The notes under the pieces: generated by a model
The model's database searches: none
Seen by the model: the letters and a program-made list of their open reading frames with translations, nothing else
Told to the model about the DNA's origin: nothing
Shown: one piece after another, positions 1 through 60,190 of the stretch
How positions within the stretch are numbered: position 1 is the first letter of the stretch
Layout of the letters: each line of letters begins with the position of its first letter
Translations under genes and position numbers: made by a program
Origin: Prorocentrum cordatum
Taxonomy: Eukaryota
Assembly (NCBI GenBank): GCA_963575745.1
Contig: CAUYUJ010000270.1
Span: 62,001 to 126,000, forward strand
Length of the DNA stretch: 64,000 nt
Reading direction: 5' to 3'

Positions 1-59
1 ACACACACTCTACTCACGCGGATAGAAGCGCCAAAAGGAGCTCACACTTCTGTCTCTTC

Positions 60-480
60 GGGCGCCACCGTATGTGGCGGGCCCAAGCCCACTTCGGCAC
101 ACCCCTCACAGGAGCGCGCCCATTCCGGTACACCCCTCACGCGGATCGTGGCCCTGCAGGGAGCTTAACCTGTGGCCCCAGTGTGTGCGACCGCATGCGG
201 GGCAGCACCATGTCGGCACACGCGGATCGTAGCCCCAGATGGAGCTCCACCTGCGGCCTCACAACCGCATACAGGCCGGGCTCACTTCGGCGCACCTCCG
301 ATGCGGACCGAGGCCTCACAAGGAGCCCCTCGCATACTAGCACGGGCTCAGTGGGCCTGGCCGCATGCGGGGCGTCGCCTGTTTTGCCCATTCCCCTCTC
401 GCGGCGCGCAGTCCGCGGGGAGAGGGCCAGATCCTGCGCTACACGCAGCTGCAGAGAATTGGGCATCTCGCCAAACTAAT
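60..480 (+). repeat. Dispersed intronic repeat; inverted homologue at ~15260-15720
   Basis: CGGCGCGCA.TC....GGAGAGGGCCA...CCT.CGCTACACGCA and repeated CA(C/T)TTCGGCACACC sub-units recur on the minus strand at 15260-15720. Confidence 0.65.
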
Positions 481-641
481 TCTGACACACCTGGAATGAA
501 TACGGGAAAGAATTGTACGATGCCCCAAAGCAAGTGTTGTCCAAAACCGACAGCGCCCGCTGTTGGGCAGCGGCCCGTGGTCCCAAATGGACAACTGACA
601 ACGTCCGCGAACCGATCGCACCGATCATTTTCCCGTGGAGC

Positions 642-1046
642 CTTTGCCGTGCAGTCGTCGGAGGCGGTGATCACGTGCCGACCTCGTGGGGAGAATGCGG
701 CGGAGCACACACCCTCGGCATGCCCCTCCAGCACGCGTAGGCAGTCCCCGCTGGGGGCGGACCAGAGCGTCGCCGAGCCGTCCGAGCAGGCCGTCAGCAC
801 TTGCCGCCCATCGGGCGAGAAGGCCGCAGAGTTGACCACGTCGGCCCCGCCCCTGCCCAGGGTGCAGCGGCACTCCCCCGTGGCAGCGGACCAGATCTTC
901 GCCGTTCCGTCGTCGGAGGCGGTGAGCACCTCCTCGCCATCGGGCGAGAACACGGCAGAGCAGACGCAGTCTGCGTGGCCGCTCAGCGTCCGCGAGCACT
1001 CCCCCGTGGCAGCACACCAGAGCTTTGCTGTGCCGTCGTCTGAGGC
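642..1046 (-). CDS. Exon 4 of UBL/WD40 gene (about three WD40 repeats); gene continues beyond the left edge
   Basis: Translation ASDDGTAKLWCAATGECSRTLSGHADCVCSAVFSPDGEEVLTASDDGTAKIW...VITASDDCTAK. Ends AAG|GC (donor 641-640). The 5' boundary is 1046 (seamless join) or 1039 (canonical AG). Confidence 0.9.
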
Positions 1047-1927
1047 GGTAATGGGGAGCAGAGAAAGCACACATGACCCATCCTTCGGGGATTGACGAAA
1101 CTGTCCCTGGCCCACGGTGTTCCAAGTTTTTCGCTCCATGTTGGAGCCCCATGGGGCCCTCCGAATCCTGGCAGGAAGGGATTGAGACGGGGGGGGAGGG
1201 GCAGGGGCGAAGGCGAGGGAGGAAGAGAAGGGAGAAAAAGGAGAAGGCGGAGGTGGACCCAGACCATCGACGACCAGAGTTGTCCGAGAGTCAGCGGCCC
1301 CTGGAATTTTCGCCGCTTCCCTGGAGACCAGCATTTCGTCCAACATCGTCCTTGATGGTCACGGCGCCCGACGGGGGCCTCCAGACGCCGAACACGGCGA
1401 ACATCCTCTGTCGCAGTTTCGGCTCGAGCAGAAAGAGCTGGGCCACAAGCGTCACCCAAGGGCTTCAAAGGTGCGTCCTGGCGAGAACTTCGAGGCGGTC
1501 GCCGGGCGGGAGGGGCCCCGGCAGACCAGCAAGGGCGAAATAGCCTCGAGGTCCCGTTCCTCCAGGACCCCCGTTTGCTGCGTTCTTCCAAGAGCGCGCA
1601 AGAGCGTCAATCTTCGATCATCGATGGACGGGGCGTCTACTCTCTACCTCGCCGATCCCCGGCTGCCCGATCCTCTGGCACAGATCGGTGCACATGCCTC
1701 CGTGGCCAAACCAAGGGGGCGCACAAACCGATCCTAGGCGCAGGGAAGGACCCAGCCAGGATCGGCAAACATGAGTGTAGATGACGTGCCCCAAATGTTC
1801 GGGATCCCCAAACGGTGCGGTGGCAGAGCGTGCGGTGACCTCGGGATCCCAAGTGGCCGTAGCGCACGGACGATTGGCCCTGCGCTGAGCCCGCTTCGAA
1901 ATACGTTCCACCCAAAAGACTGGCTTC

Positions 1928-2770
1928 CGAAACCTCCCAACGCCGATACAGTGCCCCCATGCCTCCAAAGACGGCCCCTGAGCATTGGCTACGATAACAC
2001 CTTGGGCTCTGGATGGCGTGTCCTGAGCGAGCTTGGCCCCTGTCTGAATGAGCTTGGCGAGACCGTTCTCGCGCACGCGGTGCCGATGCAGTCTCTGGAG
2101 TGCGACGAAGGCCCAGGACCGCCATGCGGCCGCCTGGTCGGTCACCGGAAGCTCGCGATATCGTTTGGCCTGCTTGGTTGGCTGCTGGACTAACTCAATC
2201 CTTTCAGCCCGCGACCACCCTTGCGGGTCGGCATAATGACGACCAAAGATCGCGCGCGCCGTCGCCTGGGCCCAAGATGCAAAACGACTGCTCGCCCCCG
2301 AGACATACGCCCCCCTCCCCCCCCGATGAGCGTGCGACTCAGCAAGACATGAGACGAAATCGTCCTTGGTTTGAAACACGAAGCTGACTTGAGCTGACTG
2401 GTGACGCAAAACAGGAATCAGGAATAGAGATGGGAACTCCAGGCAGCATCGCTCCATCAGCCTCCGCGGGGGGGTCCAGCCCAGGGGGGGGGCGCCATAC
2501 TATGCTCATCATTCGGCCAATCGCGGTCATGCATGCTCATCAACAGGATCACAGACTTCGTCTGATTGATCGCCCCACGACGCAAGTCTAAATCCAACCA
2601 GTCTTGCTGGCAACCAGGAGTCAGAGCGCGGGGCGCGCTCGCGAAAAGAGATCGCTGCACCGACGGGTGGGTCATCGAGGAGTCGGGCACCAGGATGCGC
2701 CTCAGGGTGCTTGGAATATGCGTTGGTCTTGAGCCAACGTCGAGTTGTCGAGCGGGGACGCAGCGGGCAA
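1928..2770. repeat. ~840-bp direct repeat A' (paired with 6803-7645)
   Basis: Long colinear similarity, e.g. CCTCCAAAGACGGCCCCTGAGCATTGGCTACGA and GCAAGTCTAAATCCAACCAGTCTTG occur in both copies. A shorter degenerate copy lies at ~8250-8390. Confidence 0.9.
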
Positions 2771-2844
2771 TAATGATGATAATGATGATGATGATAGTGA
2801 TGATGATGATGACGATGATGATGATGATGATGCTGATAATGATA

Positions 2845-3025
2845 ATGTCTCCTTTTTCAGCTAGCGGGAAACCGCTGCGACAAGGCGTTGGCCACACAGG
2901 GACTCTCCGAGCCGTGCTGAGAGCTCGCCGGGTAAGCCTTCTAGGGCCAAACTGACTACGGATACAGGCATGAATCGACCACAAGCGCCGTCACGACAGA
3001 GCGGCTGTTGTTTTCTCTTCAGCCG
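2845..3025. repeat. PLE pseudo-LTR copy B' (paired with 6620-6803)
   Basis: ATGTCTCCTTT..AGCTAGCGGGAA.CCGCT...CTAGG.CCAAACTGACT.CGGAT...CTCTTCAGCCG is shared with 6620-6803. Both copies abut (ATG)n. Confidence 0.75.
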
Positions 3026-3244
3026 CCGGCGCCGTTACGACAGAGTTGCTGCAACCGCCAGGCGCCGTTGCGACAGACTGCTGCGATCGCCAAGCGCCGT
3101 TACGACAGAATTGCCGCTTGTTTCATGTGACAGAAACGAGAAAAGAGAAACGTCCCGCCGTCCAACCCTTTGTACACCTCCAAAGAGAATCAGCTCAGAC
3201 TGGTACGTCATACAGTCACGTGTTCGCAGGCGCCGTCAAAGATC

Positions 3245-5200
3245 TCACGGTTGAAACCTTTTTACCACCGTTGCGAGATGGGCCCCGCCAAGCTTCCAGG
3301 CTACTCGGATCCTGTAGCCTAGAAGGTGGGACCATGACTTGTTCAGACGGGCGACGGCTCGCTGAACTCCTGAGCGCCCAAATTGTGGGAAATACGGAAT
3401 GACCAGAAAGATATATGTCGGTCCCCCGCTGGTCTTCTTGGAGACGCCAGTGCTGGAACTACTAGCCAGTGCGTGCACAGAGGATTCGTCTGCCCCGCCC
3501 TGCCTCAGGAGGGGGCAGAATCTCGAGAGCTCGTCGCTCGCATCGGACTTATGCCTTGACAAGCGAAAGAAGCGCGTCAGCATGGAAAAACGGCCACGCT
3601 CGGTGCACCTCTGGGTGGTGCATAGAAGAGTTGCTTAATGGAACCCATTGGCTTGTTCTCTTTGTGTATACACTATAGTTCAACATCCCACCACTGTCGA
3701 ACGATCGAGGGCACCATGCCTTCACATCCAGGTATGTGGCATACTCCGAACTACAAGATTCCAGCTCCACGCGGAATGGCTTTGGTTTGTTGGACAGATC
3801 ACGATAAAGTCTGTCCACGTCCTGTGCGTCACCGTCGAAAAATACAATGATATCGTCTTTGAACCCTGAAATACAGTTTGATCCCACATTGCTCCTGTAC
3901 TGTGCGTCGTCTACGACTTGAACTTCGCAAAGGTGGTGAAATGCTCCATGGCACCTCGCCACTGCACGCGCACCCCATGCCAGAGCCACATTCTACTTTG
4001 AAGTAAAATTGCACATCATGTAGCTGAACGAACTGGTCGTCGAGGACACAGGACAAAGCCTCGCGGAACTGGTTCTTCAAGCTCCCGTCGAAGAACTTCG
4101 CGCGCTCCGCTTGAAATAGTCATTGACTTCGATATTCATGATCCTGAGTTTTGGGGAGAATCGAACATGCCGGATCTTGTCGACAAAGTCCGCTGAATCA
4201 CGAAGTAGATGAGGGAGAGTCCGCAGCTTGTCCCTGAGGGCCCAGAAGACAAAGTTGCACATGGGTAGCATTGGGGAGCGCCGCTGCATGCAGTGCAGAG
4301 CTCTGTTGACGTTTTTGCCCTGCGGTTTGTGTTTTGACCGTGCAGCTCATCTTGTACACGACCCAGTGGAATGGCTCATCACAGCATGACACCAGACTCT
4401 TATATAGGTGCTTGTCTGGTTCACCTCTCCCATATTCACATATTTCTATGGCTGCGTCTCTCAGCTCCTCTACCACCGCCTGCGGGTCGAAATCTGGACC
4501 ATGAGAATAAAGTGATACGTCCATTCAACACTTTCCCATATGCTGTGATCAGCTGCCCTTTTTGTGACTAAGGCAAACCCTCCGTCTTTGTCTGTCGGGC
4601 TGGCGCCCCATACGCCGTGCTTCAACTTTGTCAAAGCATGCGTGACGGTCTTGGGGGCGATGAGAAGCCCGCCCAACCGGATCCGTGCGCGCGCGAAAAA
4701 TTCCATACATCACAGCATCAATCTCGAATAAGAGCCTCGGCAGATACATCCATGAGCTCGTCGCGCGGCCTTGCTCTTTCTGGTTTTACTCTGATGTGCT
4801 TCCATATTGGGTCTTCCGCTTCAATGCGGCATTGCGAAGAGCACGCCAGGTGACTGCAGTGGTGCCTCCAAGCCAATTTATGTCTGACGTCCAAAAGACC
4901 TCTCGTAATCGATTCCAAAGACGGGGAACGGCGAAGCCCAAATATATGTTTGCGATGATGTCGCAGAACGTATTCTACCGCCCACGAAACATCCAAAGGT
5001 TTAGGAATCCTGCTGGTGGACGCGTTCGCGTCAAAAATGCACGCGCCTGGCTGCCCTCGCCCACGCTTCAACAGCTGGCCAAGTTGAACTTTCTCCAACC
5101 CCCGAAGCAAAGTGAGGAATCACCCCGTCGTTTTACAATTGTGCGCGCAGTTCTTGTGGCATTTCCTACTTGCGCTTTCATTGAAGTGTTCTGAGCTCTT
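3245..5200 (-). pseudogene. PLE reverse transcriptase ORF, frameshifted
   Basis: Chain of overlapping minus-strand ORFs (4718-5110, 4470-4706, 4198-4524, 4077-4289, 3829-4080, 3549-3989, 3245-3583) carries the RT palm and thumb motifs. It stops at 3245 with no GIY-YIG motif seen. Confidence 0.8.
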
Positions 5201-6420
5201 CTTGGCAGAACGTTTGATGTTCACCAAGCGCGCCCAACGTTTCGCTTTCCTCCTCCCTTGGAACTACGACCGCGCCCCTGGCCACTCGCAGAGCGGCCCC
5301 TGCCTCTGTAAGCACCGCGGCCACGAGCTTTCGGCGCATACTTGGCATTGGAGTCGTAGCCCTTGCCCTTGTCCTTGCCGCTCGACTTTCCATATGTTCC
5401 TTTGGTCTTGCCCTTCGGGTGGTCCTTGTCTTTACCCTTTTCTTTGTCGTAGTTTTTGCCTTTGCCTTTGCCCTTTCATTTCTGGTCCTTGCCTTTCTGG
5501 CAGTCGCGATCCTTGGCCCCAGTCCCGCTGGGGGGACCTCGTTTCTTGGCATATATTTCAATATATCTTCTTCCTCAAGATCGCAGCCATGATACATTTC
5601 GTACTGTCATTTCTTCTGGTACCACGTCGCCGGCACTGAGGGCGCGGCTCTTGCTTTCCATTTTGCTTTCAACGCTTTTGCGACACGGTCATTCACGACC
5701 ATGTCGAATAGTTGGCCAGGCGACTTCTGCATAACCCTTTCAGCAACCTTTTCCGATTAGCCTCGGCTTTTGCGATCTTGCCCAACTGCGCTTGTTTCTT
5801 CGCCGCCGCCTGTGCCACAACTTTCGCGTGGACCATCGACAACTGCGGTGCAAGACGCTCTGGCTTCAAATCGCACTCAGGATCAGGATCGAGGCCAAGA
5901 AAAATAAAAGGCGATTTCCTATCCTTCTCGAGATTCAGACACTGTTCCAAACATTGTTCGCGCTTGCATGTCGATTTCAAGTGTTCTGGCTGCGACTGCA
6001 ACGCTTGTATGTCAATTTCTTCGTTGGCCTTCAGACATGCGCAATACAACTTGCGCTTGGCATCGCGCGCGCTCATATTTTCCAAACCAACTTCAAGCAA
6101 TAACCACCTGAAGTTTGAACCGCATCGAGGAATATGCTCTCGAATGACACAGAGAAGGGACGGGCGCCTGGAGGGTATTCCTCGCGCCCCAATGCATCTC
6201 GCTGGTCGCGAAATTTCTCCAACCGGCCACCGCGCTTCTGAAGGGACGCAACCGATGCCAACAATGACATACTGGCCTTCTTGATCAAAGGCCTCGTCTC
6301 CTTGGACGGGGCCGTCAATTGTGTTTCAATATATTCACGAATCACTTTGTTGTCATTCTCATCCAGGACCATCTCCAAATCGCATTCTTCACCTGCTGGA
6401 TATCTCCAGCTCCACCGAGC
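5200..6420 (-). pseudogene. PLE upstream ORF remnant (helical/coiled-coil, followed by a GK-rich tract)
   Basis: ORFs 6073-6621 and 5693-6100 are charged and helical (AQAAAKKQAQLGKIAKAEANRKRLL). A KGKGKGKD-like tract lies at ~5370-5500, directly upstream of the RT. Confidence 0.5.
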
Positions 6421-6619
6421 TGGACCGCAACTCCCTGCGGTTGTCCACGCCCTTGTGCTTCTCTCCTTGGACTGCGTTCTCGCCCTGCCTCGTCGTTGCG
6501 CGCCGGCCGGGCAGGGGCAGCCCCCTCGCGGAGAATTCGCCGAAGTCTCTGAGACCCCGCGCCCGCCGAAACGGATGCCATGCCGTCTGAAAGGAGTGCA
6601 ATGCACAAAATCAGACAGC

Positions 6620-6803
6620 AATGATGATGTCTCCTTTGCAGCTAGCGGGAAGCCGCTATGACAAGGCGCTGGCCCCGCAGGGGCTCTCCGAGCCCTTCTG
6701 CGAGCTCGCTGGGCAAGCCTTCTAGGCCCAAACTGACTGCGGATGCAAGCACGAATCGGCCGCGAGCGCCGTTGCGACAGAGCGGCGGATGGCCCTCTTC
6801 AGC
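6620..6803. repeat. PLE pseudo-LTR copy B (paired with 2845-3025)
   Basis: Direct repeat of 2845-3025, preceded by a short ATGATGATG. Confidence 0.75.
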
Positions 6804-7645
6804 CGAAAACTCCCAGCGCCGATGCAGTGCCCCCAAGCCTCCAAAGACGGCCCCTGAGCATTGGCTACGAAAACACCTTGGGCTCTGGATGGCGTGTCCT
6901 GAGCGAGCTGGCCCTTGTCTGAATGAGCTTGGCGAGACCGTTCTCGCGCACGCGGTGCCGATGCAGTCTCTGGAGTGCGACGAAGGCCCAGGACCGCTAT
7001 GCGGCCGCCTGGTCGGTCACTGGAAGCTCGCGATATCGTTTGGCCTGCTTGGCTGGCCGCTGGACTAACTCAATCCTCTCCGCCCGCGACCGCCCTTGAG
7101 GATCGGCATAATGACGACCAGAGATCGCGCGCGCCGCCTCCTGGGCCCAAGACGCAGGGCGACTGCTCGCCCCATGGACATGCGACCCCCCCCCCCCATG
7201 AGCGCGCGACTCAGCAAGACGTGCGGCGAAATCGCCCTTGGCTTGAAACGCAAAGCTGACCTGGGCTGACTGGCGACGCAAAACAGGAATCAGGAATAAA
7301 GATGGGAACTTCAGGCGGCATCGCCCCATCAGCCTCCGCGGGGGGGTGCAGCCCAGGGGGGGGGGGGGGGGGCGCGGTGCTATGATCATCATTCAGCCAG
7401 TCGCGGTCATGCTCATCAACAGGATCGCAGACTTCGCCTGATTGATCGCCCCAAGACGCAAGTCTAAATCCAACCAGTCTTGCCGGCAACCAGGAGTCAG
7501 AGCGCGGGGCGCGCTCGCGAAAAGAGATCGCTGCACCGACGGCTGGGCCATCGAGGAATCGGGCACCAGGATGCGCCTCAGGGCGTTTGGAATATGCGTT
7601 GGTCTTGAGCCAACGTCGAGTTCTCGAGCGGGGGCGCAGCGGGCG
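6803..7645. repeat. ~840-bp direct repeat A (paired with 1928-2770)
   Basis: Same shared strings as copy A'. Homology begins exactly where pseudo-LTR B ends. Confidence 0.9.
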
Positions 7646-8869
7646 GGAATGCTCGAGGTGGGCGGGCTGGACAGTGGAGGCAGCACTCGGGCACGCGGAA
7701 TTATGCGGAGTCGGAATGCAAGGACTGGCGACGGTGGTACAGCGCGAAACTGGTCGCGGCGGTCCGACGCGGGCTTTCGCCAGAGGCGCTTGGCCAGGCG
7801 GCGCCGACGCTGCTCGTCGACGAGGCGCAGAAAGCCTGCGAACACCTGGAGCTGACTGAGCTGAAGCAGGAGGGGGGCGCGGGCGCGTCGGGGGGCGAGT
7901 TCAGAGTTGCCATCGAGCGTGGAGAAGCTCCTTCAGAGAGCACAGGGCGAGCTCGCACGGTTTTTGCGAAGGCCCAGCAGGAAGGGCCGGCACTTGGCGT
8001 GGACAGGAGAGCGGCCGCGCTGGCCACGAGCCAACGGCAGCGAGACTTCAACAAGATGTCGGCCGCACTCCGGGCATGCAGGCGGAGATCCAATCCTACG
8101 ACCACAAGGCCCCGAACCAGGAGCAGGCGCCAAGAGACGAGGATCGAGGAGCGAGGCTGGCCCGGTCATCGGGCAACTAAAACGTTCAGCCAATGTGAAT
8201 TGCAATGTTTCACCTGATGCGCCTCACGCGCGCGCAAGCATACCGCTCGGCCGCCTCGCCGCCCCAGCTCAAACCGATTTAGCCGGCCATCGGGGGCCGG
8301 GGCGCGGGGCGCGCCCGCGAGAGGAGATAAGGATAGATAGGTCATCGAGGAGTCGGGGGCCAGGGCGCGCCTCAGAGAGTTTGGGTTTTGCGAGATGAGG
8401 AGGATGACGAAGGGCGCGCGCCCGTCTGCGGAGTCGGTTCGTTTCCAGAGCGCCGACGCGCCGCTGCGCACGCGCGGGCTCAGCCATTGCGCGGCGCCGG
8501 CGGCCTGGAAGAGATTGGCGTTCTGCTCGCAGCAGTAGGATTTGATGAGGTCGATGCCCGCGGGCGCAGAGATGGGGCGCAGCGCGTCGACGGACCTGTT
8601 CCGAATCGCGGAGCAATCGTGCTCCAGGTGGTTGTTCTTCATGCAGTGGGCCCAGGTCTTTAATAACCCCCCGGGCAATACTTGGAAAATGCTGACTTGT
8701 TCCACCAGCTTATAAACGGATTGGGGCCCCGACAATAGTTGGAAATTAATTGTTCTCGCCGTCGTCGTCGTCGACGTCGCCGCCCTCGTCGTCGCCTTCC
8801 CTCTTCCTCGGATCTACGAAACGGAGCCCAGAACGGGGGGGGGGGGGAAGGGAGGGAGGGGGGGGAGGG

Positions 8870-11800
8870 ATGAGGAGGAGAGGAGGAGGAGGAGGAGGGG
8901 GAGGGGGGGGAGGAGGAGGAGGGAGGAGGAGGAGGAAAAGGAGAAGGGGGAGGACGGATGGGGAAGGACGAGGGAGGGGAAGGAGGAGGAGGCGGGACGA
9001 GTTTCCATTTCCCGCCGAGAGCGTTGGGGGGGGGGCATCATTGAAGACCCTCTGCGGTTAAGGATTGCGGGCGGCAGCTGGGGCATGGGCGCGAGTTCGT
9101 CGCGCCCCTCGTCTTCGCACCGTCGGTTGGCTTCTTGCGGAAGAGTGGCGTCGCTGTCGTCATTGTGCCCGTCGGGGAGTCTGATCAGCTGGCGTCGGGC
9201 ATGGCGTTCAGCTCTCGCGCCTTCCAATGGTTGGCGGACGTCTGATGGCGCGCGCAGCTGCTAGAAAACTGCAGCCATGGGCCCTTCGCTTTCCGGCGCC
9301 GCCGCCGTCGCGCCAAAGCGCCCCGGCGAATGCGTCGAGTCAGGTCTCCGAAGTATAGATCGCCGCCAACGGTGCATGGCATGCTGTAAGATGGGCGTTT
9401 GAAGACTCGAACGATGTAAATGTCGCGCCGTTCCTTCCAATCGCGGCGTCGGTCCATCGTCGGGTCGTTCAGGCCGGGCGAGCACCCACTCCAAAATGCG
9501 ATGCTGTTGAGGCGCGCGACGGGAGTCGTCGGCGGCGCGGTCAGGGGCAGGAGCGCCCGGCGCCCGAAGCGGGGGGTCGGGCGCGCGGGTTGCGCAACCA
9601 GCCGACGGGCGTCATGCCTGAGGGCACTTCGGGACAGTAGAGCCTATGGTGTCTTCTTAGGGGCTACGCTGGAGTTAGGCCATGCGGCGTTTTCGGCTTA
9701 TGCTGAAGCTGTCGGTCGTCATTTCGCCGTGGGCGGCGATCCTCATTGTTGGTGATGCCGTCGTTTGGCCGGGCTGCCCCGCCCAGTTCTCTGCCGTGCC
9801 CCGGGCGCTGGCGGTGGGCGATTGTGAAATGTCGCGCCGCGCTTCGGTCGTTCCCCAACAGGGTAGGCGGAAGCATGCGTGGAAGGGGCCCTTGCCCACG
9901 GGGTCGGACTTGCCGTCGACTGCGGACTGGAAGCGCTCGCTGAAAGATCGGGGTGGCCCAGCAATCGGCGCGCAATTGCCCGTTGATAACTTTGACCAGG
10001 GTAAGCATTCTCCAGCAGTCTGGCGAAGCAACAGATACGACGCCCCAACCACGCAAGGCGCGCGATGTCGCCATCCGCGCAGCGGCCGCGACCAGCCCGG
10101 GCGTCTGCGCCACGCCACGCGCGCATGGCCAGGATTCCCACCAGCGTGCTGGCAGACAGAACGGCGCGCATCAGCTCGTGGAGCGCGTGGGTCTGCTTGG
10201 CGAGGAACATCGCGATCGGGGGAAAGAACTGCCCGGCTGTCCGAGGTTGGACATTGTCGCGATTGCCGGGGCGCTGTAGAGTTGGGCGCAGAATTGGGGC
10301 GGGCGGTTAGACGCCGCCAGTATCCGGAGACGCGACCGCCGCGTGGCCGCGGGCGTCTGCCATTGACTCGCGCGCGACGCAGCCAAGACGATGTGCGCGC
10401 CCAGGCACTTGGCCGCACCGCTGATAGTGAAGGTGGCCCTAGTCGTGGCGGTGCTTGTCAATCAGCTAGGTGATCGCTTAGAGCTGTCCACAGCGGTGCC
10501 GGGGCGCATTTCTTCGACTGAAGGGGAAGGCCTGCGACGTCAGCACCGGCGCACATGCGAAGTAACGGGCGAAGCAGATCGCGAAGGACAAGGAGCACAA
10601 CCGGCGTCATCGGGGCATGCGCAGGCAGTGCTGCCGCCACACTGCGGGTGGAACCTCGAACTGATCTACTGCGGAGAATTGGCTTGAGTGCGGTGTCGGC
10701 GCCAAGGGGAATCGGCTCAAACGCGAGCGCCCATATAGATCCACTTCGAGGACACACTTGTGCAACTCCGCCGTCAGCGAAAAAGAGTGGGCGGATCGCA
10801 TTGCCCAGCAGTAGGAAGGCGAGCTGATTGTGGCAACAGGCGTGAAGCAGCTGCAGGAACGAGCCAAAAATGCAGGAGGCTGGGAAACGCCGCAGAGAAG
10901 TCCTCACTCAGGAAGCAGGGCTGCAACGCTGCAGAATCGTGAGGGGTGCTGACCTTGGGGCAGCACGCCTCGATTTTGACTACGTTGGTGAAGCATTGCT
11001 GTCCAGGGACACATCCCTGGACACGTTGCGCGCCGCTGACGGGGCGGGGGGCAGGGCTTCTGGCTGCAGGCAGGGGCGATGATCTTCACGTCGCCGTTCT
11101 TCGCTGAAAGCGGGCGGAGCGCGCCAGAATCGCGTGGAAGTGCGATCTGGTCAGGGGCGGGGTCGGCTGCGTGCTCGGCCGCAGCTTCGAGGTCCTGCTC
11201 GTTGGGATGGCAATGTCGATCGTCTCCATCATGGGGGAGACCTTGTCCAGGTTCTGCATCGTGTCCTGTGCCTTGTGCCCAGCGCGCGTGGATGGCGCGA
11301 TGAATGCTGATCGGGTCAGTCTCGACGCGGGAAATGCCAGCGGCGACAATGCGACAATCTTCACGCCATTGAGGACCAGCTGCTTCGCGAAGGACTTCCA
11401 AAGTTCTCAGCGCCGCAGCATGCGAGATGCCCGCTCTCGCCAGCGGTCGCCGCCGCGAGAGCGATGGGCAGCGCGTGCTCGTCGTGCTTGGGCTGCTGCG
11501 CGCTCGTCGCTCATCGGCCGCGCCAGGGTGGCCCGCGGCGGCTTCGATGCTGAATTTCGGGAGGTCGCGGATGCAGATGTTCGCGTTGGGGCTCGCGCTC
11601 GGCGCGTCGTCGTGGACCTGCAGGCGCCCGGCGCCAAGGTGCGGGTCGTCGATGAGCAATCTGGCAAGCGGCGCATCCCGATGCTAAACAGCTCTCGCGA
11701 TGCTTTGCATGGCCATGGAGCTCGCCTCCTCGGCGAGTTCCCCGCGCTTGTTTTTCAGGACATCTGGGTGGAGCTTCAGTCGCCCCGCGCGCGGGCTGCG

Positions 11801-14047
11801 CGGCCGCGCGCGCGCTGCCCTTGAGACCCCTTCCATTTAGCCGCTGCGCCGAGGGAAGAAGTCCATCGCAGTTGTCGAGCTCGGTGACGTAGTGCTTGTG
11901 GAAGACGCCCTTGAAGATCATGGGCGGGGTCGCTCTGTCAGATGGCGGTCGCTGATCTCGCGGGCGGGCGCGGAGATGGGGGGCCTCGCGGTCGCTGGAG
12001 GACGCGCCTATCTTCTAGACGGGCTCGTCGTTCGCGGCGATCGCGGCCTCCATGTGCGGGACGGCGTGCGCTTCCGAGGAGATGGAGGCGCGGTCGATGA
12101 TCGCCTCGCCGTCGTTCGCGCAGCGCCAATGAGTGGTCGCTCGGGTTGTCGCCTCGATAACGCCCATGGAGATGTCGCACCAGAGTTGCGTCGGCTGCCG
12201 ATGTAGCGGAAGCGAGGCGACGCCCGCAAGGAGCGCCGCGCTGCGCGGCGGCTGATCAGAAGAGGCCGAGGCCCCTCACCGTGATCACCGTGTACTTCGC
12301 GGGGCCTGGGCGCACCAACGGCATGGCGGTTCACCGCGGCGCCATGGAGTCACGTCTGCTGGTCGTGGATGGGTCGTCGCTGCGCACGCTGAATTTTATG
12401 CTGCGCCATCGCTTCGCGTTGCCGGTGATGTTCGCGATGGCGATGCGACCTGGCGCGATTTCGCTGACATCATGCATGCGCTTCTTATCCGAGTGGCTGT
12501 CGCAGCAGTCAGTGCTAATAAGGGGCCGGGCAAACCATGCCCCCAGCGGCTAGTTTGCAATCGATACCCGGATGATGCGCTGCATGCTGGTTGCTGTTGG
12601 CCGTCAAATTGGGCATGTCGCTTGCGCCGTGGAAATCCCGGAGCCAGATCAAGCTGGGCAGGCGGAGGTAACGGCCAGCAAGCGGCGGTTGGCACCGCGA
12701 CGCGATTGGGAGATGCCACAGATGGATTGGAAACCGCGTCGGTGCCATCCTTGTTATTGCCGTCGCGCCTTGGTACCCATCCGTTGTCAAAACCACGACA
12801 CTGCCGCCTGCGGGTTCGCGACAGTGGGCGAATTCGCCCGCGAGCTCTTGATGAGCAGCGGGCGCGACGCCAACAGCAGCTGCCGCGTCGGACCACTGCG
12901 CCTCTTCGTTGCGTCGTTTGGCTTCGCGCCGATGTGCAGGCGGACAGTCGACAGAGAGGTGGCCGTCGTTAGGGTGGGCTCTGCGCGAGATGCCATCAAA
13001 ATTGTCATTGATAATCAGGAACCTGGAAGGTTTCCCGGGTTGCACCCCCAGCCGCACAAGCTTCGGGCTCTTGTTGGCACCGACGTACAGGGGGACGGTC
13101 TGGTCACCCGAACGGGCAGAGAACTGACGCCAGTCGCGGCCGAAACGAAGATGATGATGGAGCCTTGCCGCGCGGGATGACCACCGCGTCGCCTCCGAGC
13201 AGCGTGATGGAGACTCGCGTGTTAGGGGCGTTGTTGCTGAAGCGAACGCAATTGACGTTCACCTCGGCTGCACCGAGCCAGGGCTGGAGGGCCTCGCGGA
13301 GCTCGGCCTTGGTAACGTATTGCATGCAGCCGCGCAAGCACGTGCCGATGTGGCCAGGTCTGTCCCAGGCCGTCGACGGCGGCAAGGTCGACTGAGGGGA
13401 CCTGGGCCCCGGCCTGCGCGATGGACTGCTGGAGATTGGTGATTGCGGTGCGTAGGTCGGCGGCACTCTTGCCGGCAACGGCGAAGCGATTTTTGACTTC
13501 CGCGAGCATGGACTCTGTGTGCTCTTGCCGCTCAGTGACCGAGGCCGTGACTTTGCATACGTGTGCCATGAAGTGGCTCTGCGCTGCCATCGTGGGCTCG
13601 CTGGTTGTCTTCTTAAACTGTTTGAATGTTTGGTCAATACGTTCCTCGAATATGGTTTCCATTTCGCTTCGGGTGGGCTCGATCTGACCATTGTTGATCT
13701 CGGCAGCAGAATCTTGCCATGGATCTCGTTGTTGATCACGATTTGATTGTTGCTGTTGCCGAGAAAGCGCTCCCGACTGCCACGAATCCGGTGACGCTCG
13801 GCACTACGAGGAAAAACTTTGGTGGAGAAGCCCATGTTGTCAGCTGTGACTGCGGCGCCGCGGGGATGCCGTCAGGAAACCGCTGTGCTAGGTTCGCGCC
13901 ACCACGAACCAATACCGCGTGGATGAAGAAGAGGAGGAACCGTTGGAGTCCCCGACAAAGGTGTGAATGGATGGGAACAGGCCGCGGATAAACGGCGTCC
14001 GCTTCGTTATCAGGAGAACACATCATATTGAGCCAAAATAGCTACGA
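8870..14047 (-). mobile_element. Non-LTR retrotransposon (LINE; ORF1 + APE endonuclease + RT, possible RNase H), full length but decayed, SL relic at 5' end
   Basis: Coiled-coil ORF1 at 13222-13835. APE-like THW...IIDRASISS...SSDREAPI at ~12140-11975. RT motifs: LRPLSAKNGDVKII (~11120), QGCVPGQQCFTNV (~11010), LSEDFSAAFPSL (~10900), GVAQVCPRSGSIWALAFEP (~10760), CAGADV (~10550). (CCT)n tracts at both ends. Confidence 0.8.
14027..14047 (-). other. Relict dinoflagellate spliced leader
   Basis: TCGTAGCTATTTTGGCTCAAT versus the established SL DCCGTAGCCATTTTGGCTCAAG: 18 of 19 identical over 14046-14028. Confidence 0.85.
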
Positions 14048-14624
14048 GGAGGAAGGAGGAGGAGGGGTTTTCGACATGCACCGCAGCAAGGCGCCACCAC
14101 CATGCAGCTGGGCTGGGTAGCGTGGCGCGAGGAGCTCCCGCTCCAGAGTCGCGAAAGCGAAAGACTGGAGCGGAGAGCAGGCGACAGCGCCAGCAACGAG
14201 CCCACGCGGCTTCCGCAAGTTGAGAGAGGAAGACCATCAATCCAAAAAGCCGACAATCCACCCAAAAAGCTCACGGGCACAGTGCAGCCATCGTGCTGGA
14301 CAGGATGGTCACCCTCGGCCGCTTCGGGTGGCGGCATTTCAAAAGCTTGGCCCAGGCGTCTGGTGTCCTGGGAGTGCCGTCCTTGTTGACAGGAGGGCCG
14401 AAAGAGGAGGAGGGGAGAAGATAGGAGAGGAGAGGAGAGAAGCGGAGGAACGGGAACGCGGAGCGACCCTGATTCGAAACGAAGACCCAAGACCACAGGA
14501 TGGTTGGATGGTTGGTACAAAAATCGGCGCCTGCGGCGGGCTTCTTCCGAGGCTCGCAGACTGCCGACGACCCCGCCGCCCCCTCACTCTTCTCCTGAAG
14601 ATCGCTCCCTCTCTGCTCCCCACG

Positions 14625-14780
14625 GGTGAGCACCTGCCGGCCGTCAGGCGAGGCCACGGCGCTCTTCACGGGCGCCGCGTGCCCCCGCAGCGACTGCACG
14701 CACCGCCCGGACCCGAGGTCCCAGAGCCTCCCCTGCGCGTCCGCGCAGGCACAGAGCACGTGCAGAGGCGGGGTCACCAC
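14625..14780 (-). CDS. Exon 3 of UBL/WD40 gene (VVTPPLHVLCACADAQGRLWDLGSGRCVQSLRGHAAPVKSAVASPDGRQVLT)
   Basis: Acceptor CAG|GTG at 14782-14781. Clear WD40 motif (LWD...L.GH...V.S...SPDG). The 3' boundary is ambiguous (14624/14625) because of the TIR-bounded interruption. Confidence 0.85.
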
Positions 14781-15259
14781 CTGCGTGGGCGAGCCGGCGG
14801 AACCGACCCACGGCGACGACGACGCCAACGACGACGACGACGACGACGACGTCGGCGACGACGACGGCGACGACGACGACACCGGCGACGGCCACGACAA
14901 CGACGACGACGACGACGACGAGGTCCCAAGTCCACCGAGCACCGCCTGGACGCCAGATCCCAGGGCCTCCCCTGCGCGTCCGGCCAGGCACGGAGGGCGC
15001 GCGGAGGTCACCATCCAGTCCGTCGTTGCTGAGGTTCGAGGATCGAGGTTTCTTGCCTCAGGGGTGCAGTAGGTACGTACGATTAGAAATCTTGCAATCA
15101 GAAATCTGGGGGCAAGTTCTTCGTTGATCCCTGGGGCTATCGGAGGACAAAAATTGTTCGAGGAAAACTTGCTGGCAGGCCGGATTTTGTTATCCGATGT
15201 GCCTGCTTTTGAAGGGGGTCGTCGTCGCCGTCCCCGTCGCTGTCGCCGCGGCGTGGTCG

Positions 15260-15720
15260 TCGCAAATTTAACCTGCCGCAGATGAGCAATGCGTGTAGCG
15301 TAGGGCGTGGCCCTCTCCTCATAGATTGCGCGCCGTGGGAGGGATACAATTCGGGCAAAGGGAAAAGGAGGTTGCCGAGCAGGCTGAGCTTCCTGTAGGG
15401 GCAAGATCCGTGTGAGGGTGTGCCAACATGGGCAGGGAAGCGCAAGGACACGATCCGTCTGAGAGGTGTGCCGAAATGGGCGGAAGGACCGCATGCGGGC
15501 GCCCTCGCTGGTGCCGAAGGTGGGTTCCCCCTAACTGTGGTGCGCAATACGTGTGAGGGGTGTGCAGAAATGGGCGAAAGGACCTCAGACCGCACGCGCG
15601 CCCTCACTGGTGCCGTAGCTGCAACTCCCAATGAAGCACGATCCGCTTGAAGGGGTGTACCAAAATGAAGAGAAAGACTACGTGCGGGCGCCGTGACTGC
15701 TTCCGTAGGTGGCGCTCCCT
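15260..15720 (-). repeat. Dispersed intronic repeat, homologue of 60-480
   Basis: Reverse complement shares GGAGAGGGCCAC.CCCTACGCTACACGCA and CATTTCGGCACACC with 60-480. Confidence 0.65.
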
Positions 15721-16119
15721 GTGGGGACGCTAAACTTGTGAGGAGTGCGGTGTGTCGAAATGCCATGCGGCCAACTTTTTAAGAGGATTGCGATAAATTG
15801 CGACGCTAGTTGTGAAATTCTGAGTTAGGGCCCATGAAAGCCCGTTCACTAAAACCTGCTCGGTGAACAAGCGGCCCCGGGCGAGGTGTCGAGATCCCCC
15901 CAGGCCCAGCCCAGGAAAAGATTGCGACGTCATCCACAGCCTCGCGGTCTGGACTCCTGGGCCATGACCCCATTGCGGCTTTGCACGGATGCCCCGCACA
16001 CAGCGTGTCTATGGGATCGCGTACCCTTGGGATCGCGCCTCGGTGTCCAGACCGCGACCGCGAAGACATTGATATGGATATACTCGCCGATCGCTGCTGA
16101 TGGTGAAACAGCCCAGACC

Positions 16120-17383
16120 GAGCCACGACAACGATCTCGCTGACAACGGACGACGGACGACGATGACAACGACGACGAGAAGGTGCCATGAAATGCCCGC
16201 GAGCCCAGAGCCGTGCCCGCAAACGGCGGGATCACAACCTAGTGGCGCCCTGGTTAGAGCGAGACCCAAACCACCCTCGATACCTGATCGGAAGACTTTC
16301 AGATGGTCTCCGGGAGACCGTCGAAAGGTCTCCAGACGCCTCCGGGGACCTCCGCGGAGGGGCTCCAGACTGGGGGCCTGGAAGTGGACCCGTCAGACCT
16401 GGAGCCGAGCCGACCCGAGATGGACCTGACGCGAGCCGAATCGGCCCGCCAGCCGAGAACGCGACGACGGCGACGGCGACGGCAACGGTAATCGCGACGA
16501 CGAAGACGATCACGATTGCGACAACGACCCCTCTCACAGCTCGACCCCGGCCAGGTCTTCGAATGGTATCCTGCCGTGACGACGGGGAGCCTCCTGGAGG
16601 CTCCGCAATGACAGGCCTCGGACCTCGATGCTCGGACGACGATCCGCGCGGCGATCTGGGCCGAACTGGGCGGGCCCTCCCAGGGACAACCTCGACGATG
16701 ACAACGGTGTTGACGAGGCCGACGAGGACGTTGACGCTGCTTTTGACGTTGACATTGACGCTCACGGTCGACGACGACGGCGAAGACGACGTCGTCACTC
16801 ACGACGACGACGATGACGGCGACGATGACGACGGCATTGACGACGCCGACGACGTCGATGTCGACGCTGCCCTCGACGCTGACCTTGACGAAGACGCTGA
16901 TGCAAGACGACAGGACCGATGAGCAATGGAGATGGTGGCGCCGACGACGACGGACCACGACGGACCAAGCGGCGAGCCCAGGCGGCGCCTTCGGCGGCCA
17001 TCGGCGGCCCCGAGAGGTCGGTTTGCTACATGGGTCGGTCGGCGTTCGGACCATCATACGGGCATTCGGCGGCCGTTTAGGACAGTTCTAGCATTAGGTC
17101 GGGCATGCCCCCCCACAGGCGAATTTTGGACGAAAAATGCAATATACAAAAAAATATCAAAAAATTGCCAACAAAGATTCGACAATTCGTCGCCATACTA
17201 TTTTCTAACTGTTTTTGAATATTCCTCCTGTAGAGGGACAGGCCCGACTTAATTCTAGCACCTCAAGAACGCCCTCGGCGAGGTGCATCTGCTGGAAAGC
17301 ATTCCGATGCGAACTAAACAAACAAAACACTTCCGAAAACTTCGGCGGATTTACGCGGCCACCGTCCGCCCTGAGCGGCGCCA

Positions 17384-17414
<31 letters not shown>

Positions 17415-18510
17415 AGACGACGACGAAGACGACGGCGACGGTGACGGCGACGACGGTGACGCCGCGGCGACGGCGATCTGCGACGCCGCGGCGGCGTGCC
17501 CTCCAGCGTGAGCGCCGCGCCCGCGGACGCCCCGAGCTCGGCGAGGGTCGTGCCCTCCCGCAGCTCGGCGCCGCCGAGCAGCAACGACCTGGCGACGACG
17601 ACGACGACGGCTCAAGATTGCCCAATATAGCTTCCCGCATGCCTCCAAGCGGCGCCAAGATGGCTCGAAATAGCAACGGAGCCTCCCAAGGACACCCCCG
17701 TCCGTCAGCGGCGGCGGCGGCGACGGCGGTGACGACGTGGGCGTTGGCGTTGCGACGCCGTTGACGGCGACGACGGCGTTGACGTTGACGACAAGGGCGC
17801 TGACGTTGACGACGACGACGGCGATGAAAACGACGACGAGAACAAAGACGACGACAAAGACGACGACGACGACGACCGAGGCGATGAGGTCTCTTGGCAA
17901 CCTCCGCGGAGGTCGCCGGAAGGCTGGACAAGCCGCCAAAAAACCTCGATCCTCGATCCTCGATCTTTGATCGGCGACGACCCAAACCTCTGACGTCGTG
18001 GGTTCTCTCAAGGCGTGGTCCCCAAGCTCTCGACCCCTTCATTGGGACCGGATTTTAACCCCGATAACAGCTTCTGGCCCCCGAGTTTTCGACTCCTTCA
18101 AAGGGCCCTGTGCCCAGAAATGGCCCTCGGCAGGACGCCGGAAGATGCGAAAGACATCCCTCGGCGGCAGCGGTGGCGACGACGGCCTGTGACCCTTCCA
18201 TAGCGGGTGGGCGGAACACTTTCCTCGCGGATCGATCATTGACGGTCCTTGGTCCCGCAAGCGCCCTCCCCACCCCCAGGGGCGGAAATAGAGGACAACT
18301 GCTCACAGAGAACAGACTACCACGTCGGGGGTTTGATACGGCGACGAAGGCGAAGATGACGACAACACCAAAAACCTTGAATATTCGATGTTCGACCCTC
18401 GGACGACGACGAAGACGACGACGACGGCGACGACGATGGCAGAGACGACGGCGAGGACGACGGCGAAGACGACGACGACGACGAGGACGACGAGGACGAC
18501 GACGACGGCG
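16120..18510. repeat. Degenerate (GAC)n/(GTC)n microsatellite field with TCGATCC(TCGA) motifs, surrounding exon 2
   Basis: Many GACGAC tracts (16460-16960, 17385-17480, 17590-17880, 18400-18510). Similar tracts lie at 14810-14920, 20230-20480 and 48330-48875. Confidence 0.85.
17504..17588 (-). CDS. Exon 2 of UBL/WD40 gene (C-terminal half of ubiquitin-like domain: SLLLGGAELREGTTLAELGASAGAALTL)
   Basis: Acceptor CAG|G at 17590-17589, donor CTG|GA at 17503-17502 (GA donor, known in dinoflagellates). The LLLGG.EL....TLAELG......LTLVV pattern is ubiquitin-like once joined to exon 3. Confidence 0.8.
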
Positions 18511-18592
18511 GAGTCACAGGCCCCAAAGTCGACCCCAGGCCTGATCTTGGGTTGCGCTCTGACAAGAATCCCACCACCCATTCAGGGCGTAG

Positions 18593-20133
18593 TAATTAAT
18601 GAGTTGGTTCTTCCAATACTTGTCTACCTCTTGAGGGAAAAGCCCACCTTTCCCCCTCCCCCATATCCCTGGGTCTAGGCCGGGCGTTACGCGAGGCATT
18701 GGAGCGTTCAAGATTGCCAAACGTGGCCCCAAAACGGCGCCGAGTAGCCCGAGATGGCCGCCGAAATCGTACAAGATTGCGGCACATGGCTCAATATAGC
18801 TTCCACGATTCCTACAAGAAGCGCCATGAACGTCCCAAGATGGATCCAAGTGGCCACGGAGCCTTTCAAGGACCCCCCCGGATGTCCCACACCCATCCGA
18901 AACCTGTGGGGAATCAGTGTGTTTTGTGTTATCGCTCTTTCGCTCCGGATGGGAGCAACAGGCCTCAAGATGGCCCCAAATTGGCCAACGAAAGCACCAA
19001 GAGGTGCCCAAGACCCAAGACGGCTCCAACAGCGCCTCAATATCGTCCCAAGGTGGCCCGAGAGGAATTATTTCAGTCTCCGACTGGGGGGGATTAACAC
19101 GACCCCCCCTTCTTTGGTCGATGGCTTCCAAGATGGCCCCAATAACGGCCCCCAGGACCCAAGAGAGCCGCAAGAGGGCCCCGAGAGGGCCCCAAGAAAG
19201 CGCCAAAAACCTCCAAATCGGCCCCATGATTGCCCAAGTAAGCTGCCAGCAGGCTCCCACATCGAAAATATCCGCGAAGGTTGATCCCCATCTTCGGTTT
19301 GACAACTGCCCCCCCTCTTTGTTCCACTGCGTGCTCCAACGCTTTCCTGGTCAATACAACCCGCCTAAACATCGTTGCCAAGTGGTGGGCTGGTGGGGAT
19401 ATTTTTTGTTCGCGAGCGACACAGAGCAACTGCCTGCACGCCGTCAAGAAGCGAAGTAACAGAGCCACGATCTAAAGTACGGCCAAAGAGGGAGCCACAG
19501 CCACCGGAGCGCGCTACGCAGTCGCTCGGGCGGCGGAGCCCGAGAAGCCCAGGAGGTCCGCCAGGCCGAGGAAGACCAAGAAGAGGGCCTCGATGCACAC
19601 CAAAATGGTGGGTGAATTGGGGCGTCAGAGCCAAGATGAAGAGCCAAAACAGCCGTCATGCACGTGCTCGCCATACGCGCAGCGAAGAAGCAAGCAGAAG
19701 GCTAGACGAAGGTCACCGACCGCCAGCTGACACACGTCGTGAACGTCAGTGCGCGCCGCTGCCAGCCGTCACTCGCATGTGGGGTTGAAGCCAGTCGTCG
19801 GCGGTCGCAAGACCCGTTGCCGGAGGGCGTCCACTAGCCACTGCGCACTCGACAACGGAGTGGCACTGGTGGGGGTACTTTTTGGTCAACAGGCTCGCGA
19901 GGCGGGCCGAAAGCCGTCCGAATACTAGTCGGGCCGCGACTAGGCAGCAGGAAAAGAAAGGCAAGCGAAGCGAGCGAGCGGGCAACCACTCAGAAAAAGA
20001 GCCAGAACCGATACTCCCAAACCCGGTGGCGTTGGAAATCCCGGTGGCGACCAGCAAGTAAGCGCAGCCAGAATGGCGCGGCGGCGCGAGCATAAACAGT
20101 GCTGGTGGGGATACGCGAAGCGTCAATAAATTC
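18593..20133 (+). mobile_element. Unclassified non-autonomous element: CCAAGA-rich body, internal cassettes, GCTGGTGGGGATAC-GCGAAGCGT-AATT end
   Basis: Starts and ends at AATT. Same head (CCCCTCCCC..CCCTGG) and tail motifs as the copies at ~21230-24284, ~27030-27370, ~33870-34146 and ~49740-51255. Confidence 0.5.
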
Positions 20134-46206: not shown

Positions 46207-46306
46207 NNNNNNNNNNNNNNNNNNNNNNNNNNNNNNNNNNNNNNNNNNNNNNNNNNNNNNNNNNNNNNNNNNNNNNNNNNNNNNNNNNNNNNNNNNNNNN
46301 NNNNNN
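46207..46306. other. Assembly gap (100 N)
   Basis: Run of N between (CTA)n and (CCT)n. Adjacency across the gap is not guaranteed. Confidence 0.99.
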
Positions 46307-59379: not shown

Positions 59380-60190
59380 TGAACCTCGGCACCTCACGGG
59401 ACACAAGGGTCCCGTCCTGGCAGATCCGGTACGACAAACGGGTGAGCACTCGGCCATTGAAAACAAGAGCCAACGGCCAGGATTCTCTGTGAGTCGGGGG
59501 CTGGTCCCACAGACGGACTGTGTCCACTGCGGGCCATGCTCCGATCGACGGTGGCTCCCCTGGCTGCGGGTCACTGCCCGTGGCCTCGTGCTTCCGCACA
59601 CGAGCAGGCTCGCCATGCCTCCGCTGGCTTAGCCGCGAAGGAAGATGATCTAGGCCTCGCATGCTCGGATCCTTCTTGGTCGGGAGAAGCCTCAACAAGT
59701 CGTAGTCCGCCTCGAGGCAAAGCCCCGCGTCTCTTTTTGGGAACTTAACTTCTCCGACCATGGATTCCACCAGTGTCTCCATATTGGTGATATGGAGGAG
59801 GGGCCCATGACACCTGGCTATGCCAGGGTCATAAGGCGCACGCATTCTTTCAATTGAAGCAACAAAAGTGGAATGTCCCTGACATGCTCTGTAGAAAACT
59901 GGAATGGGAGAGAACATCCTCTCCCTTGAGAGGGCCAAGATTTGTAGTCACGCCACATTGTATAAACGGTCGTCTCCTTGATGGTGGCGCTGTTGTCAGG
60001 GAGCACTCCGAGGACCTCAGCAGTCCCCGGCTGCAACGCGGCTAGGCCGTGTGCAGCAAGTGCATATAATGTCTGATACCCAAATCCATCCTCGGTCATC
60101 TTCTCAACCGGGTCTCCAAAGTAGACCCAGCCTCCCGAAGACCTCGCGTAATCAGAACAATGCCTCGCGAGATACGTCGCGCAATCTCCG
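59380..60190 (-). pseudogene. Tpt1/KptA-like RNA 2'-phosphotransferase domain, split by a frameshift near 59938
   Basis: Motifs in canonical order: YLARH...GGWVYFGDPV (~60175-60110), FYRACQGHS (~59900-59870), LLHIT (~59795), MRGLDHL (~59660), DGTLVSREVP (~59415). Compare the Tpt1 motifs LRH, GW, IRAxQGHS, LYHGT, RxHVH, NGVWL..VP. Confidence 0.7.

Follow-up and report, generated by a model that had tools for sequence, protein, structure and literature searches.

A 13.6-kb interruption of a WD40 gene in Prorocentrum cordatum, bounded by an inverted repeat and an ACC direct repeat and probably removed from RNA as a non-canonical intron

Introns whose ends are marked by inverted repeats (IRs) and short direct repeats (DRs) have been described in dinoflagellates and euglenids. 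In Amoebophrya A25 and A120, introner elements carry IRs of 8-20 nt and DRs of 3-5 nt over the intron boundaries, with the DRs located 1-4 nt from the IRs (Farhat et al., 2021; PMC7789003). These elements are described as lacking a transposase, the introns analyzed measure 40-1000 nt, and the authors favor a mechanism distinct from ordinary splicing (PMC7789003). The Introners of Symbiodinium and Polarella are DNA-transposon-like, with inverted repeats and target-site duplications (TSDs) of 3-8 nt (3 nt in one class), and in all classes described there G[T/C/A] and AG are brought along or recruited, with the element ends or the TSD as their source (Roy et al., 10.1101/2020.10.14.339549). The nonconventional introns of Euglena follow an experimentally dissected code consisting of a 3-nt spacer, paired CAG/CTG, a 5-6-nt spacer and a purine (PMC12501133), and an origin from miniature inverted-repeat transposable elements has been proposed for them (PMC12501133, PMC6221363, PMC3935182). 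Here, we describe a 13.6-kb stretch that interrupts a WD40 gene on the minus strand of a 64-kb segment of the Prorocentrum cordatum genome (contig CAUYUJ010000270.1, positions 62,001 to 126,000; hereafter the window, with positions counted from its first letter), and that is missing from transcript contigs of this gene.

The genome of P. cordatum has a G + C content of 59.7% and introns of 4.7 kb on average, 2.4% of which were classified as 'IE+' because an IR of 8-20 nt and a DR of 3-5 nt lie no more than 30 nt from the intron ends (Dougan et al., 2023; PMC10666404). Its gene models allow only GT, GC and GA donors, which sum to 99.9% (PMC10666404). A review from 2024 likewise gives GT/GC/GA-AG boundaries for core dinoflagellates and, in the portion available, mentions other boundaries only for Amoebophrya (PMC11453091). 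The window, with a G + C content of about 60%, shows dinoflagellate nuclear hallmarks, namely spliced-leader relics and GA/GC donors combined with AG|G acceptors. The closest named eukaryote proteins to the WD40 piece, among the matches listed, are from Prorocentrum cordatum (58%), Alexandrium monilatum (49%) and Effrenium voratum (48%).

The reading frame of the WD40 gene loses sense directly past an ACC codon (coordinates are given in Table 1). At this 5' side, reading along the minus strand, ...GTG CTC ACC is followed by CG and then by a 13-nt arm. At the 3' side a second arm is followed by TT, ACC and GCC TCA GAC GAC GGC, and the sequence past this ACC reads ASDDGTAKLW before continuing into three more WD40 repeats. 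The two arms, separated by about 13.5 kb, are perfectly complementary over 13 nt, where the inverted repeat ends (at 14 when a G.U pair is counted), and the offset between arm and ACC is 2 nt at both ends. The window holds two exact copies of the 13-mer, both at the ends of the interruption and in inverted orientation; a third site differs by 2 mismatches, which is chance level, and the sub-terminal parts beside the arms are unique within the window. The break falls at position 28 of 39 of the Pfam WD40 model. The sister repeats are unbroken and read ...VLTASDDGTAK(I/L)W, with the codon TCC where the split repeat has TCA.

The junction can be read from public sequencing data. The downstream exon (645-1046) is present in 20 of 24 listed runs, from 7 studies, and words of the exon are few or absent in runs X19 to X24. 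Four of these 20 runs are recorded as RNA, and many others come without a recorded library type; the contig sets of the latter, at about 100 million letters, are transcriptome-like. We compared contigs (k = 31) from four runs of four studies with positions 1-20000 of the window: X1, recorded as polyA RNA-Seq, and X2, X11 and X14, for which no library type is recorded. In each of the four runs, one contig joins 1046 straight to 14625, skipping 13,578 nt. The joint slides over 3 nt (ACC fits either side) and reads VLT|ASDDG, with flanks on the shorter side of 29, 70, 155 and 155 nt and depths of 6-12. No mismatches between exons and contigs were found over 650 nt (641-1046, 14625-14779 and 17503-17591; 406 + 155 + 89). 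In X11 and X14, the contig with the large joint also skips 14780-17502, a GA..AG intron, and it therefore represents processed RNA with the exon structure of the locus. Between the exon end at 14625 and its sister repeat, only about 11 nt are shared, whereas the sequence past the joint belongs specifically to 1046-1023; since the shared stretch is far shorter than the 31-nt word, the joint is not an artefact of contig assembly. The joined contigs of the four runs contain no extra exons between the two ends. As exact removal is seen in all four runs, the stretch appears to act as an intron, rather than simply killing the gene. Among the pieces listed, contig cover of the interior is limited to short repeat-like pieces and no unspliced contig crosses either edge of the stretch, observations that carry no weight either way.

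These results bear on a preliminary description of the sequence, made without transcripts, which had pointed out the 13-bp inverted repeat, the symmetric 2-nt offset and the ACC duplication. All three are present. It had further argued that precise removal needs boundaries other than GT/GC/GA-AG. Additional exons between the two ends, which it had counted among the observations that would refute its view, are absent from the joined contigs. The joint allows four registers (CG..CC, CC..AC, CC..TA and AC..TT), and none of them provides a G[T/C/A]..AG or AT..AC boundary. The choice it posed between VLTASDDG and VLTHDG falls to the former, the precise joint, in the contigs of all four runs.

The second of these products would result from a canonical pair that is indeed in the sequence and in frame, C|GT at 14623 with AG| at 1041, the AG of which was noted to come from the TCA codon that distinguishes the split repeat from its sisters. 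Could the stretch be an ordinary spliceosomal intron that uses these sites, with the inverted repeat as a passenger? The sites exist, they keep the frame, and annotation would pick them, given that published models of dinoflagellate genes are confined to G[T/C/A] donors (PMC10666404). However, no listed joint has these ends, whereas the joint from 1046 to 14625 occurs in all four runs. Contigs drop rare variants and a minor VLTHDG isoform is possible, but we consider it highly improbable that this is the major route. The neighboring intron, in contrast, begins with GA and ends with AG followed by G in a register allowed by its 2-nt ambiguity, which is the ordinary dinoflagellate form; the longest inverted repeat in its 30-nt ends measures 5 nt.

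In RNA, the two arms form a computed duplex of 14 bp (13 Watson-Crick pairs and one G.U) with an energy of -27.9 kcal/mol. When the 76-nt ends are cofolded, they reach -71.8 kcal/mol (shuffled sequences, -59.0 +/- 3.8 kcal/mol), in a predicted fold that contains the arm stem. Short direct repeats by a stem, together with non-canonical ends, are a known signature of template switching, and the joint could in principle have been made by a reverse transcriptase that jumped the base of the hairpin between the ACC repeats on unspliced RNA. The ends of the stretch have this appearance and the stem is strong. Yet assembly produced the joined form in every one of the four runs, each from a different study (depth 6-12), the joint restores an intact WD40 repeat, and a skip over a 13.5-kb loop would be needed in nearly every molecule. 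We therefore regard template switching as a very improbable source of the joint.

A perfect IR of at least 13 nt within 30 nt inside both ends was found for 3 of 39,846 random position pairs of the window, and a junction slide of at least 3 nt for 5.8% of random position pairs. When the whole 64-kb window is considered, an IR of at least 13 nt combined with a DR of at least 3 nt at equal offset (0-3 nt) is no rarity and would carry little conviction by itself: it occurs 5 times, while 20 block shuffles gave 0-5 cases, 2.05 on average. The position pair studied here was set without reference to the IR and DR, from the broken WD40 repeat and from the RNA junction, and the coincidence is thus real. 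For shorter arms this is different: in a simulation, about 1% of random pairs had an IR of at least 8 nt no further than 30 nt from both ends, so the 2.4% of introns in the 'IE+' class may be partly due to chance, but the 13-nt arm is not. The repeats at the edges also bear on the possibility that the assembler misplaced 13.6 kb into the gene. The window does contain a scaffold gap elsewhere (100 N at 46207-46306), but there are no Ns in 1-20000 and a misjoin would not yield a perfect 13-nt IR and a 3-nt duplication at its edges, making an assembly error extremely improbable. Even taken together, template switching, the canonical pair as major route and an assembly error remain improbable.

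The interior of the stretch offers few clues to its origin. In Pfam scans, no reverse transcriptase, integrase or transposase domain was found in the 79 open reading frames (ORFs) of at least 110 aa overlapping 1-16000, nor, at E up to 0.1, in 73 ORFs inside the stretch (67 of 65-109 aa and 6 longer ones scanned again). For 7 of these 73, Pfam matches were obtained, all sub-threshold noise and all to domains of other kinds, and Rfam gave 0 matches over the whole window. The stretch contains microsatellites and two copies of a repeat of about 1 kb (A and B in Table 1), of which block X is 90.9% and block Y 83.5% identical. These copies were considered as a pair of long terminal repeats and rejected as such, because their block order differs. 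Near the 5' end lies a decayed copy of what we take to be the dinoflagellate spliced-leader motif, changed at 2 of 21 positions, with a CCT-rich run before it and ATG ATG after it; judged from its sequence, it would mark a retroposed mRNA copy nested in the intron. Because the leader relic is changed at 2 of 21 positions and the repeats are only 83-91% alike, the interior looks old, and it seems better described as old, decayed, non-coding filler. The inflation by nested retroelements that the preliminary description had proposed is doubtful, with this one relic and the repeat pair in its favor and the missing reverse transcriptase, integrase and transposase domains against it.

The age of the interior is relevant for the most serious alternative, in which a transposon hit a single version of the gene (a copy, an allele or a strain variant) and stays in its RNA, the mRNA being supplied by an identical insertion-free copy with a single ACC. 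A terminal inverted repeat (TIR) with a TSD is the exact footprint of a DNA-transposon insertion, the RNA junction coincides with the empty site that such an insertion predicts, and the perfect arms and duplication resemble those of a young insertion. Dinoflagellate genomes are rich in duplicated genes (PMC10666404), and a low-depth contig (X2 record 20, matching 14683-14791) shows 2 mismatches to the locus, which hints at a second, slightly different copy. Furthermore, a loop of 13.5 kb is far outside the size range studied in Amoebophrya. Against a dead copy, this locus has intact exons that show no difference from the mRNA of four studies across 650 nt, and the interior is a decayed patchwork without a transposase rather than a fresh autonomous element. 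If the interior is old, an insertion-free duplicate that predates the insertion should have diverged in its exons, yet the mRNA matches at 650 of 650 nt. The 2-nt offset and the non-complementary terminal dinucleotides are odd for a young TIR element, but usual for the introner elements of Amoebophrya. On balance we find a dead copy unlikely, though well worth keeping in view; if it is the right explanation, the locus is an ordinary transposon-disrupted gene copy.

We consider it probable that the stretch derives from an insertion of the TIR/TSD type, is now an introner element with an IR and a DR, and is excised from RNA at non-canonical sites, as in Amoebophrya. Of the proposal that a DNA transposon turned into an intron or killed the gene, the transcripts thus favor the intron; that the stretch began as a DNA transposon is suggested by the TIR and the 3-nt duplication. 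According to this model, a TIR element would have entered the Thr codon of the WD40 repeat at ACC and duplicated it. The arms would pair in the pre-mRNA, so that the two junctions would come to lie 2-5 nt away from the foot of a single stem, and cutting and joining would be measured from the stem, and not from splice-site sequence, at equivalent places in the two ACC copies. In this way 13,578 nt including one copy of ACC would be removed and the original reading frame would return exactly. A spliceosome tolerant of such ends, or another activity, are candidates for the enzyme.

Several points weigh against this model. The stretch has no transposase, the 64-kb window holds no further copy of the arms, and a gap separates the arms from the duplication, which they would adjoin in classical TIR elements. 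Combinations of IR and DR of this size arise by chance somewhere in the window. A loop of 13.5 kb would be expected to hamper co-transcriptional pairing of the arms more than the 40-1000 nt of Amoebophrya introns, and the Euglena motif (N3-CAG..CTG-N5-6|R) is missing at the ends of the stretch. Three of the four compared runs lack a recorded library type, and an identical insertion-free paralogue, allele or strain may supply the mRNA. The argument from age is soft as well, as the repeat copies may already have differed from each other when they were inserted and the relic is short.

Table 1. Features of the interrupted WD40 gene and of the 13.6-kb stretch (positions in the window; mismatches refer to transcript contigs)
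Feature	Position	Strand	Evidence or remark
Upstream exon of the same transcript	17504..17588	-	Contigs match 17503-17591, edges ambiguous by 1-3 nt; 0 mismatches in X11, X14 and X2
GA..AG intron, 2,723 nt	14781..17503	-	Joint 14779 to 17503 in X11 and X14
Exon, 52 codons, ends ...SPDGRQVLT; WD40 positions 1-28 of 39	14625..14780	-	0 mismatches; Pfam E 1.6e-5
Direct repeat copy 1 (ACC, Thr codon)	14625..14627	-	3 letters fit both sides of the joint
5' arm of the perfect 13-nt inverted repeat	14610..14622	-	2 nt (CG, 14623-14624) inside the direct repeat
13,578 nt missing from mRNA (register 0, slide of at most 3 nt), G + C 60.5%	1047..14624	-	Joint 1046 to 14625 in 4 of 4 runs
Decayed spliced-leader relic	14027..14047	-	2 mismatches to the presumed motif
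Repeat copy A: block X 1927-2768, ATG microsatellite, block Y 2838-3025	1927..3025		
Repeat copy B: block Y 6620-6805, block X 6803-7644	6620..7644		
3' arm of the inverted repeat	1052..1064	-	2 nt (TT, 1050-1051) inside the direct repeat
Direct repeat copy 2 (ACC)	1047..1049	-	
Downstream exon: rest of the split WD40 repeat (ASDDGTAKLW...) and three further repeats	642..1046	-	Contigs 641-1046, 0 mismatches; Pfam WD40 E 8.7e-31

The downstream exon closes with AAG, followed by an ordinary GC donor, and the next exons of the gene are beyond the start of the window. Past position 641, contigs continue for 188 letters that are foreign to 1-20000 and then match 902-956, with 9 mismatches in X1 and X2 and 0 in X14. 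This difference between runs may reflect a collapse of WD40 repeats in contig assembly or a second copy of the gene. At the other end, the short exon at 17504-17590 was considered as ubiquitin-like and rejected, as it has no Pfam support and, at 29 aa, is too short.

The intron at 14781-17503 holds (GAC)n arrays and a decayed copy of the adjacent exon. Positions 14939-15007 are 83% identical to 14700-14768 (both on the minus strand), with a broken frame, 239 nt upstream and with a (GAC)n array between them, and would represent a decayed partial duplication of the exon. Arrays of (GAC/ACG)n of about 70-120 nt are found at 14810-14921, 16769-16866, 17376-17493, 17808-17876 and 18402-18507, and the 13.6-kb stretch has a (GGA)n array at 8843-8992; the long 'inverted repeats' in the output of the repeat finder come mostly from arrays of these two types. 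About 40 nt within the same intron (17212-17252) match pieces of several unrelated high-cover contigs with 0-2 mismatches and a depth of up to about 215 (X1, X2 and X14, the runs with such pieces listed). This segment seems to be a short dispersed element that many transcripts share.

Further along the window, a near-complete spliced-leader relic is present at 26939-26960 on the minus strand, matching 21 of 22 positions of the same presumed motif, with a (CCT)n run ahead of it as at 14027-14047. A retroposed mRNA copy probably has its 5' end here, and the CCT-rich lead-in common to both relics suggests a shared insertion context or element family. Related short repeats flank the gene piece at 1-360 and 15137-15778, with the strings '...HFGTPL...' and '...RSA...' recurring in translation; this unclassified repeat is either dispersed or tandem. 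No Pfam match was obtained for the longest stop-free frame of the window (59821-62424, minus strand, 868 aa). It may be non-coding, because long open frames come easily at a G + C content of 60-65%.

In protein searches, the annotated protein of the gene itself was not among the best 120 of 7,989 matches (at most 59% identity) or the best 120 of 774 (at most 63%), which is uninformative because long multi-repeat bacterial proteins crowd the ranking. A scan of public metagenomes for the protein pattern returned 182 relatives in 467 stretches, of which the best 80 do not exceed 56% identity, are of bacterial type and do not include this gene; an exact 30-nt word from the exon end gave 0 matches in public metagenome contigs.

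If the stretch is excised as proposed, one mRNA would carry the products of both a GA-AG intron and an IR/DR intron without a usable splice motif, and both routes would coexist in a free-living dinoflagellate. The locus would then be a concrete place to ask how such introns are cut, for instance whether a lariat or a circle is released and whether removal depends on the stem, and it bears on how exonic transposon insertions are tolerated and turned into introns. We tentatively extend the model to a possible, though doubtful, generalization, in which free-living dinoflagellates with large genomes, and not just the parasite Amoebophrya, remove transposon-derived introns by measuring from a hairpin, independently of the boundary sequence and even over a loop of 13.5 kb. 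Gene finders for core dinoflagellates are hard-wired to GT/GC/GA-AG (PMC10666404). In models limited to these donors, a junction such as VLT|ASDDG would be forced onto the nearest canonical pair. The 'IE+' introns of P. cordatum (2.4%) would then have been placed on canonical sites by gene predictors, and published proteins would be mis-modelled by a few residues, for example VLTHDG for VLTASDDG. To our knowledge, non-canonical introns with an IR and a DR are known at scale only from Amoebophrya, with another form in euglenozoans. We found no report of IR/DR introns with boundaries other than G[T/C/A]..AG in a free-living dinoflagellate in the open literature, spreadsheet supplements and subscription papers aside.

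DNA transposons with TIRs and 3-bp duplications include PIF/Harbinger and CACTA. The stretch resembles them in its 13-nt terminal inverted repeat and 3-nt duplication, but it differs in the 2 nt between arms and duplication, in termini that are not of the CACTA type and in a duplication other than TWA, and the scanned ORFs gave no transposase. An autonomous DNA transposon or retroelement would encode a transposase or a reverse transcriptase and integrase, and the Pfam scans give no sign of these. Of the features that define Introners in the sense of Huff/Roy et al., a TIR and a TSD are present, with the arms 2 nt off the duplication. The defining supply of canonical splice sites is missing in every register, and the junction in the contigs is not the nearby canonical pair.

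Like the nonconventional introns of Euglena, the stretch has non-canonical ends that can pair, an ambiguity created by a DR, and a conventional intron in the same gene (PMC12501133, PMC6221363, PMC3935182). The spacers between stem and junction are 2 and 5 nt in register 0, with a purine first in the exon, compared with 3 and 5-6 nt and a purine in Euglena. The 3' spacer thus fits the euglenid rule (5 nt, then G), but the trinucleotides of the motif 5'-N3-C[A/G/T]G ... C[A/C/T]G-N5-6 | purine do not, as the stem opens with U-A (or G.U) after 2 nt. CAG/CTG is missing, the phylum is another one, and removal was experimentally dissected in Euglena, whereas it is read from contigs here.

The 'IE+' introns of P. 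cordatum and other free-living dinoflagellates come closer, as the stretch satisfies the same operational definition and as the window resembles those genomes in having long introns and a G + C content of about 60%. In contrast to these introns, which come from models restricted to GT/GC/GA donors, its RNA junction is itself non-canonical. Of the features used by Farhat et al. and Dougan et al. to recognize introner elements, three are found here (an apparent intron by transcripts, an IR of 13 nt and a DR of 3 nt), and so are ends other than GT-AG, which mark a subset in Farhat et al., in all four registers. As to a further feature, a family of many introns with the same IR or a related interior, the 64-kb window holds no other exact copy of the arm. 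As in Amoebophrya, these non-GT-AG ends are linked by an IR and carry a boundary DR, there is no transposase, and the host is a dinoflagellate. Unlike in Amoebophrya, the intron measures 13.6 kb, it is a single case, and the host is not a syndinian parasite but a high-GC organism with long GA/GC/GT-AG introns. Compared with the known introner elements of the Amoebophrya type, host and size are what stand out.

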